DNA of 60,112 nt from Candidatus Yanofskybacteria bacterium. Lineage in GTDB: Bacteria; Patescibacteriota; Minisyncoccia; 2-02-FULL-40-12; IGHO2-12-FULL-4. Below are positions 52,222 through 52,448 of this stretch, piece after piece. The stretch's first letter is position 1. Each line of letters opens with the position of its first letter. Both the position numbers and the translations under genes were made by a program. The notes beneath the pieces are model-generated. The model was given only the letters and a program-made list of their open reading frames with translations. It searched no databases and had not been told where the DNA came from. The stretch lies in the NCBI GenBank assembly GCA_016181105.1, contig JACOZX010000018.1, positions 1 through 60,112 on the forward strand, in the 5' to 3' direction.

Positions 52222-52448
52222 TATAGTTTACCGATTATTGTTTTTTCCGGACGCTCGTTTTCTTCCAGCGAGAAAACTCGCTCTTTGCAGGCTGTGGATT
52301 CCCGCCAAGAAGGCGGGACCACGCCATCGGACTTACGTCTTATTCGCCTTCAGCGAATGGGCCGTAAGTCCGATGGCTAGCAACCTGCCTGTCGGCAGAC
52401 AGGTCCACAACCTGCAGAGCCTTCAAAAACAATAATCGGTAAACTATA
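52222..52448 (+). ncRNA. A-type structured element, copy 2
   Basis: A perfect 24-bp closing helix TATAGTTTACCGATTATTGTTTTT/AAAAACAATAATCGGTAAACTATA. It is the full-length version, with the long middle hairpin. Confidence 0.7.

Follow-up and report, generated by a model that had tools for sequence, protein, structure and literature searches.

The gap between the pilus operon and ligA in a Candidatus Yanofskybacteria contig is filled almost completely by inverted repeats, which raises the question of whether the sequence is an ordinary spacer, a structured RNA or a mobile element. The region was examined within the window, the whole 60,112-nucleotide stretch of DNA that was analysed, whose LigA is 100% identical to a Candidatus Yanofskybacteria LigA. 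The element, called copy 2 below, is 227 nt long and lies at positions 52222-52448 of the (+) strand, its orientation being set by the core sequence CCGGACGCTCG. The stop codon of the upstream ORF is at 52216-52218 and copy 2 begins 4 nt past its last base, as stated in the initial annotation, which was made from the sequence alone. The start of ligA is at 52458, 9 nt beyond copy 2, and apart from 3 nt and 9 nt the spacer is wholly occupied by the element. An independent Logan assembly (L163) contained an identical copy 2 sequence at the same junction, which indicates that copy 2 is not an artefact of MAG assembly.

Folding of copy 2 gave an energy of -128.2 kcal/mol, compared to -60.5 ± 4.5 kcal/mol for shuffled sequences (z = -15), and none of 200 shuffles was as stable. 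The structure is closed by a helix, P1, between the 24-nt arm TATAGTTTACCGATTATTGTTTTT (52222-52245) and its exact reverse complement (52425-52448); shuffles gave an expectation of 0 chance matches to these arms, and the perfect 24-bp closing helix reported initially was therefore upheld. Inside P1 lies the conserved junction core CCGGACGCTCG (52247-52257), the GG of which pairs with the CC at 52420-52421, followed by the P2 hairpin GTTTTCT/AGAAAAC with a conserved CCAGCG loop (52257-52277). The third helix, P3, is formed by the 5' arm CTCTTTGCAGGCTGTGGAT (52281-52299), which includes a conserved U.G pair, and the 3' arm TCCACAACCTGCAGAG, which is followed by a conserved CCTTC junction (52404-52424).

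The interior of P3 contains three variable modules. The first is the hairpin CCCGCC-aagaa-GGCGGG (52301-52317). The second is a long hairpin (52323-52377) with a hypervariable lower stem and a conserved apical CUUAU..AUGGG motif containing a tandem U.G; the two 25-nt arms, at 52323-52347 and 52353-52377, are 88% complementary, and copy 3 of the window also has the apical motif CTTATTCG..CGAATGGGC, so that both the long middle hairpin and the conservation of its loop were as first described. The third is the GC-rich hairpin CCTGCCTGTC-ggca-GACAGG (52384-52403), with the hairpin proper, CCTGTC-ggca-GACAGG, at 52388-52403. This terminal hairpin had been said to be common to copy 1 and is identical there, CCTGCCTGTCGGCAGACAGG having exactly two occurrences, at 52384-52403 and at 21636-21655. 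GC-rich palindromic stretches of the GCCTGC../..GCAGGC type were also observed in the polA ORF at 12802-12843 and in ORF 26147-27505 at 27375-27422. The initial annotation had noted that the GC-rich hairpin of copy 2 resembles these inserts, and positions 27382-27402 match 52384-52403 at 17/20 positions with one gap, which bears out resemblance, not homology. These stretches may represent a separate family of in-frame mini-insertions.

Scans called no terminator-like site within copy 2 and no consensus promoter in or beside it. An outward promoter, TTCAAA-N17-TATAAA, had been spotted by eye at the ligA end and was dropped as the scan did not call it. Classical GC-stem/U-tract terminators exist separately in the genome, for example at 48678-48710.

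Copy 2 is one of several related sequences. BLAST, inverted-repeat and model searches gave a total of three large and four mini copies in the 60 kb of the window. Copy 1 (21516-21700, + strand) has a UPF0102/YraN-like gene (-) on one side and a LysM/M23 peptidase gene (+) on the other and is orthologous to a copy in L136. Copy 3 (33670-33871, - strand) is flanked by an unknown ORF (-) and by an NAD-epimerase gene (-). The three large copies have a common architecture, consisting of the P1 closing helix, the junction CCGGACGYTCG, P2 with its CCAGCG loop, and P3, a long stem ..GTGGATT/AATCCAC.. inside which the variable hairpin set sits. ORFs of 71–77 codons traverse all three (52202-52435, 21521-21736 and 33641-33856); annotation could mistake these ORFs, which are almost certainly spurious, for hypothetical proteins.

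The mini form consists of a ~20-bp stem and the core TTTTTTGCGTCGGACTGTCGCCGCCGAACTGCAAAAG, and the four in the window share a CGGAC..TCG core. They are found 14 nt upstream of the polA start (14407-14482, +), upstream of the epimerase gene start and adjoining a tRNA gene (34782-34855, +), in the gap that separates the prepilin peptidase gene from the pilus gene after it (49600-49672, -), and in a pseudopilin leader, where the mini (50700-50838) holds a 66-nt nested insert and the whole insertion spans 50690-50842 (-). Further YGGACNNTCG matches in the window, at 23975, 55678, 58055 and 58995, lie in coding sequence without hairpins and were rejected as chance. A 77-nt hairpin with GTAG../..CTAC arms is located upstream of rpsO at 31437-31513 and may be a third type in the same hairpin superfamily; at this position the relative L124 has a large element in place of the different hairpin of the window.

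The initial annotation had proposed a covariance-model search, and a model built from the three large window copies was applied to 36 metagenome-contig loci selected with a stricter pattern. Copy 2 itself scored 223.8 bits with this model (R1). Beyond the window the search retrieved 33 further copies, which come from metagenome contigs or related MAGs and show massive compensatory variation. Several of the outside contigs hold two or three copies, L145 having three in mixed orientation, and one additional large copy is present in a Yanofskybacteria MAG (L161 17322-17506). Seven of the 33 copies are cut by contig ends, and the L163 contig breaks inside copy 2 at the portion common with copy 1, as is expected of repeats. 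The elements range from 185 to 245 nt, and every copy has a closing helix of 22–28 bp, with a median span of 24 bp. Copy 2 had been described as full-length; it is the longest in the window, but it is not the full form of the family, since others reach ~245 nt (L145 8937-9179, for which the model match of 263 nt extends 10 nt into the flank at either end), and some members hold internal modules different from those of copy 2. The mini form was also found in L133, L156 and L160, and intermediates (L125 4177, L145 6524 and L127 717) combine a large-type frame with the mini-type CGGACTGTCG or a near variant of it. An initial 15-base pattern scan was too loose, with 118 of 119 loci being chance and L058 alone a true member; the pattern matches in L120, L123, L130, L132, L135, L137, L140, L142, L147 and L152 were likewise chance matches to unrelated sequence. 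A long AT-rich hairpin in L158 (10495-10577, GAGCTATTATTTCT.. / ..AGAAATAATTACGCTC) has an unrelated loop and gave a weak model match of 11.9 bits, which suggests that there are more hairpin families in related genomes.

The family did not correspond to any described one in the collections searched. A scan of the window against Rfam 15 returned three tRNAs only, leaving the element unmatched, and at E values up to 10 the region 52150-52520 gave noise matches only. The element had no blastn match in phage and plasmid collections, was absent from the viral contigs searched, and the literature searched for repeats or structured RNAs of CPR and Parcubacteria contained nothing relevant. The element belongs to a previously undescribed repeat family found in Candidatus Yanofskybacteria-like bacteria. 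Another non-coding sequence of the window without an Rfam match, at 17182-17333, shares 91% identity with L058 956-1107 across 152 nt; a 32-bp hairpin forms part of it (17209-17279), and it may represent a conserved small RNA gene.

The pairing statistics were drawn from 28 full-length copies. Standard pairs fill 90.8% of cells, compared to 71% for column shuffles and ~42% when the partners were slid. Two-sided changes occur at 55 of 69 pairs, including all 24 pairs of P1 and 7 of the 8 pairs of P2, and it is the outer 12–15 bp of P1 that vary between copies, with compensation. The same behaviour was seen between orthologous copies: copy 1 and its L136 counterpart differ by three double changes in P1, and the 49600-49672 mini differs from its L156 orthologue by at least three compensated stem changes, with only two differences in the loop. 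The core is conserved, with both of its GG–CC pairs being GC in 28 of 28 copies, and the CCAGCG loop of P2 is found in 27 of 28. A three-way junction with conserved unpaired nucleotides and covarying helices is what a dedicated structured ncRNA or cis-acting mRNA element would be expected to display, and this is the main rival to a mobile-element reading. On such an account the copies would be paralogous, with a protein or ligand binding to the core and apical motifs; pairing, or cleavage by RNase III to free the RNA, would be all that is required of the closing helix, and mobility would be incidental. Two wobble features are consistent with it, the conserved U.G of P3 (UG in 22, CG in 5 and UA in 1 of the 28 copies) and the tandem U.G of the apical CUUAU/AUGGG motif, present in ~21 of 28.

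These wobbles, three positions in all, are, however, the only strand-specific signals that were observed. G.U pairs make up ~2% of pairs overall and are no commoner than A.C mismatches, and in copies co-oriented with genes there were 21 G.U and 24 A.C against 811 Watson-Crick pairs; at variable positions the two are roughly equal, contrary to what selection on an RNA would predict. The opposite strand is equally or more stable, the complementary strand folding slightly better in 23 of 30 copies, and neither folding energy nor G.U counts revealed a preference for the core strand. The pairing constraint is essentially Watson-Crick and two-sided, as a DNA hairpin or cruciform would show, and the covariance signal is therefore not proof that the functional form is RNA. 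Template switching between hairpin arms during replication could yield such pairing without selection on RNA (PMC8794818, PMC5941160). For the conserved core, which is not palindromic, strand-specific recognition by some putative protein is the obvious candidate explanation.

The genomic positions of the copies were examined with respect to the neighbouring genes. All full-length copies are intergenic, mostly 3–20 nt from both neighbour genes. Among large copies between same-strand genes ~15 are co-oriented and 3 opposed, and this ratio of ~15/18 is consistent with an RNA role. Five other large copies are located between divergent genes, the antisense gene having its start codon 5–25 nt from the 5' end of the copy, which leaves no room for an upstream promoter, and one is between convergent genes. 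The CGGAC strand of the minis is antisense to the neighbours in 5 of 6 cases, 8–20 nt upstream of start codons, which also argues against the RNA reading, as does the lack of a consensus promoter in or beside copy 2. The orientation singles out no one transcribed strand for the superfamily. Some other features of gene organisation were observed in the window. The region ~36000-42000 contains a GC skew sign change, the cumulative skew minimum and a switch from mostly minus- to plus-strand genes, and may be a replication origin. A ComM/Mg-chelatase-like gene at 23928-25326 is present as two ORFs (24532-25326 and 23928-24530) with part of the ATPase domain uncovered, which could reflect a frameshift, a pseudogene or an insertion. 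A PrkA - SpoVR - DUF444 - PrkA cluster (2453-9654) forms a stress/sporulation module that is unexpected in a reduced CPR genome.

Comparison of related genomes revealed that the element is gained and lost, being present versus absent at the pilus–ligA junction and at six or more other loci. The initial annotation had proposed comparing orthologous pilus–ligA spacers, and the nearest lineages, L156 (LigA 83% identical) and L159/L160 (79%), have the same gene order without the element. Their spacer is 92–93 nt long, conserved among them and unrelated to the element; the possibility that it is a degenerate element was rejected, given that there was no model match and the fold was weak (z = -2.3). 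The lack of the element in these relatives indicates that it is derived in the lineage of the window, and since the whole ancestral spacer was replaced the exact insertion boundary of copy 2 is unreadable. At the MBL–NDK junction a large copy is present in L161 and absent in L162 and L158, while at the rpe–pfkB junction there is a copy in L128 and an unstructured spacer without one in L156. The mini in the peptidase spacer is present in L160 and missing from L159 despite 99.8% identity, and L156 has an extra mini (6450-6542) in the pilin–peptidase spacer, none being found at the matching site of the window.

The mini at 50690-50842 is a duplicate of 49590-49676, including 10 and 4 nt of flank, and is the sole datable copy event. 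With its extra nested 66-nt insert it forms an insertion of exactly 153 nt (51 codons), in frame in the pseudopilin leader (ORF 50672-51310) and present in the window only. The pseudopilin ORF encodes 212 aa in the window versus 161 aa in L156, with 78% identity after the insertion. An ATG inside the element is a possible new pseudopilin start codon. The modular and nested construction proposed initially was supported, as copies related to one another differ in entire hairpin modules and in deletions within hairpins: copy 1 reads GCCATCG|ATGGC where copy 2 and the L136 copy keep a full hairpin, and at one locus the modules of L122 are not those of L144. No consistent direct repeat was found at the boundaries of the copies, and there was no target-site duplication at 50690-50842. 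A TA duplication is possible at copy 1, copy 2 and the L136 copy but missing in most copies, and conserved termini were not found among the copies.

Some copies have nevertheless been retained at orthologous sites across deep divergence, namely the copy 1/L136 pair and the 49600-49672 mini, kept in L156 and L160. In both cases the loops are nearly invariant and the stems compensated, which points to selection at the locus rather than pure selfishness. The near-invariance of core and loop at orthologous loci, where synonymous sites should be saturated, favours a structured RNA. The density of copies (~7 per 60 kb) and their frequent gain and loss, even inside coding sequence, do not. The structured-RNA explanation is thus kept alive by the conserved wobbles and the conservation of the core at individual loci, and weakened by the strand symmetry, the mixed orientation and the insertion dynamics; we regard it as a serious though doubtful account of the family.

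We consider that copy 2 is probably a non-autonomous, insertion-polymorphic, modular palindromic repeat of Yanofskybacteria-like Parcubacteria, of the same kind as ERIC, Correia, BOX, RPE and REPIN sequences. The element would work like these repeats, a likeness that is not a claim of membership in any of them. The unit consists of a closing helix of 22–28 bp, drifting in sequence yet complementary, around an asymmetric and conserved core made up of CCGGACGCUCG, P2 with its CCAGCG loop and the GUGGAUU/AAUCCAC stem of P3, within which swappable hairpin modules are nested. New copies may be made from a single strand that has folded, most probably DNA, as suggested by the pairing being Watson-Crick-only and equal on both strands, and a putative trans-acting enzyme would recognise the conserved core. 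Template switching between hairpin arms during replication may help to maintain the perfect stems, being a process that can preserve hairpins (PMC8794818). Once inserted the element would be co-transcribed with its neighbours, and its two-turn duplex could then serve as a putative hairpin for processing or stabilisation, of the type that RNase III acts on, so that the pilus operon and ligA would be uncoupled. Known repeats of this type fold into transcript hairpins that RNase III or RNase E processes, and they nest in one another and insert in frame (PMC10969869, PMC2649163).

Comparison with these systems revealed both shared properties and differences. Like the element, ERIC is an imperfect palindrome of ~100–250 nt found intergenically or within transcription units in either orientation, with short and long forms generated by internal indels, orthologous retention and occasional intragenic copies (PMC10969869). 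ERIC belongs to another phylum and forms one long imperfect hairpin, whereas the element is an asymmetric three-way junction with conserved loops and a hypervariable closing stem. A TA duplication has been reported for ERIC in Yersinia, and is not seen for the element. The Correia repeats of Neisseria have terminal inverted repeats of about two turns that enclose a core, fit tightly between genes and form a hairpin in mRNA, which RNase III can cut or protect, with altered expression of the neighbours (PMC2649163, PMC10969869). The terminal repeats of Correia are, however, conserved in sequence and accompanied by a TA duplication, neither of which is the case for the element, and Correia creates promoters where the promoter scan of the element found none. 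The likeness to ERIC and Correia is one of working manner, not of consensus sequence.

The pneumococcal BOX, RUP and SPRITE repeats share with the element a modular construction (boxA-boxB(n)-boxC), stable folds and mutual insertion (PMC3049150, PMC10969869), but BOX is unrelated in sequence and has tandem boxes, while the modules of the element are hairpins nested inside a helix. The RPE of Rickettsia are palindromic repeats of a reduced genome that insert in frame into protein genes (PMC10969869); the copies of the element are mostly intergenic, with one in-frame case only. The element departs from the known kinds in its hypervariable paired closing stem, its conserved asymmetric core and the lack of a target-site duplication. 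As in a MITE, the copies are small (below ~500 bp), non-coding, multi-copy and without a transposase, the ORFs across them being spurious, and there is insertion polymorphism between related genomes. A classical MITE was rejected in view of terminal repeats that are not conserved between copies, the lack of a parent insertion sequence, none being found at any element locus, and the lack of a target-site duplication.

A bolder account, which we think rather unlikely, is that the ornate structured RNA or ssDNA is itself the mobile agent, ribozyme-like or protein-scaffolding, and in effect a bacterial 'SINE'. The core (CCGGACGCUCG, the CCAGCG loop and the tandem-G.U motif) would recruit a copying enzyme of the host or encoded in trans, and the closing helix, free to vary, would act only as a clamp, with the copies persisting in ultra-small CPR genomes as mRNA-processing signals.

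The search for a mobilising enzyme brings in the REPIN-RAYT systems, which resemble the element in that their non-autonomous repeats form long hairpins, are numerous and persist vertically, and in that a Y1 transposase is encoded once in the genome (PMC3337134). Pfam scans of 30 window ORFs detected no integrase, reverse transcriptase or other transposase beside the sole transposase-like gene, which encodes a RAYT-like Y1 protein (14988-15650, - strand, PF01797). The element could accordingly be pictured as REPIN-like and mobilised by this protein. The persistence by vertical inheritance resembles that of REPIN populations (PMC3337134, bioRxiv 10.1101/2021.07.10.451892), and in a subset of members the stem has an unpaired GTA(G) at its base on one strand, with 3' arms ..CACTACGC in L128, L141, L125, L126 and L058, as well as at 31437-31513. 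GTAG is absent from copy 2, as it is from copies 1 and 3, and the Y1 protein scores 43 bits with the NCBIfam RAYT model, below the cut-off of 80. The gene has its own REP hairpin, CCAAGGAGGCTCCTTGG, with three copies at 14965, 15476 (inside the CDS) and 15681 and nowhere else in the window; this repeat is unrelated to the element and not dispersed, on which grounds the Y1 protein was rejected as the mobiliser. The L159 homologue likewise has a different private REP hairpin, CCGAGGTCGAACCTCGG, and the arms of the element are not REP doublets. Mobilisation by this transposase appears improbable.

If the element were a retron-like or other reverse-transcriptase-dependent template, copied by way of RNA and cDNA with a reverse transcriptase supplied from another locus, Watson-Crick-only pairing would be explained, as both the RNA and DNA forms would have to fold. 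The strand-symmetric constraint is consistent with this, as are the closing a1/a2-like helix, the conserved G's after it, the small msr-like hairpin and the long variable msd-like hairpin, but the case consists of resemblance. No reverse transcriptase was found beside the window copies, whose neighbours are the YraN-like, LysM/M23, epimerase, pilus and LigA genes, or among the called genes of L156-L162, and the element was rejected as a retron ncRNA. To our knowledge retron ncRNAs are single-copy and adjacent to their own reverse transcriptase. A retron-like origin is very improbable. An integron attC site was also rejected, as the stem bases misfit RYYYAAC/GTTRRRY, the orientation in L145 is mixed and no integrase was present in the ORFs scanned. 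An ordinary spacer with a terminator, or a chance palindrome, would suit the position at an operon boundary, but this reading is refuted by the fold z-score, by a family of more than 30 homologues and by orthologous spacers that lack the element, with classical terminators separate in the genome and none called in the element.

CPR genomes are tiny and streamlined and repeats are expected to be rare in them, yet ~1.6% of this 60-kb contig belongs to one repeat superfamily, whose gain and loss continues between near-identical strains. The element provides a handle on the dynamics of mobile DNA in organisms that cannot be cultured. It is also a practical cause of MAG fragmentation, with contigs ending inside it, and of annotation errors such as spurious ORFs and misplaced pseudopilin start codons. 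A conserved asymmetric core on a stem that is constrained only to pair offers a natural test of selection on RNA against template switching at the level of DNA, and the element may point to an unrecognised mobilising enzyme. If the core were a catalytic or enzyme-recruiting RNA or ssDNA, the importance of the family would rise sharply.
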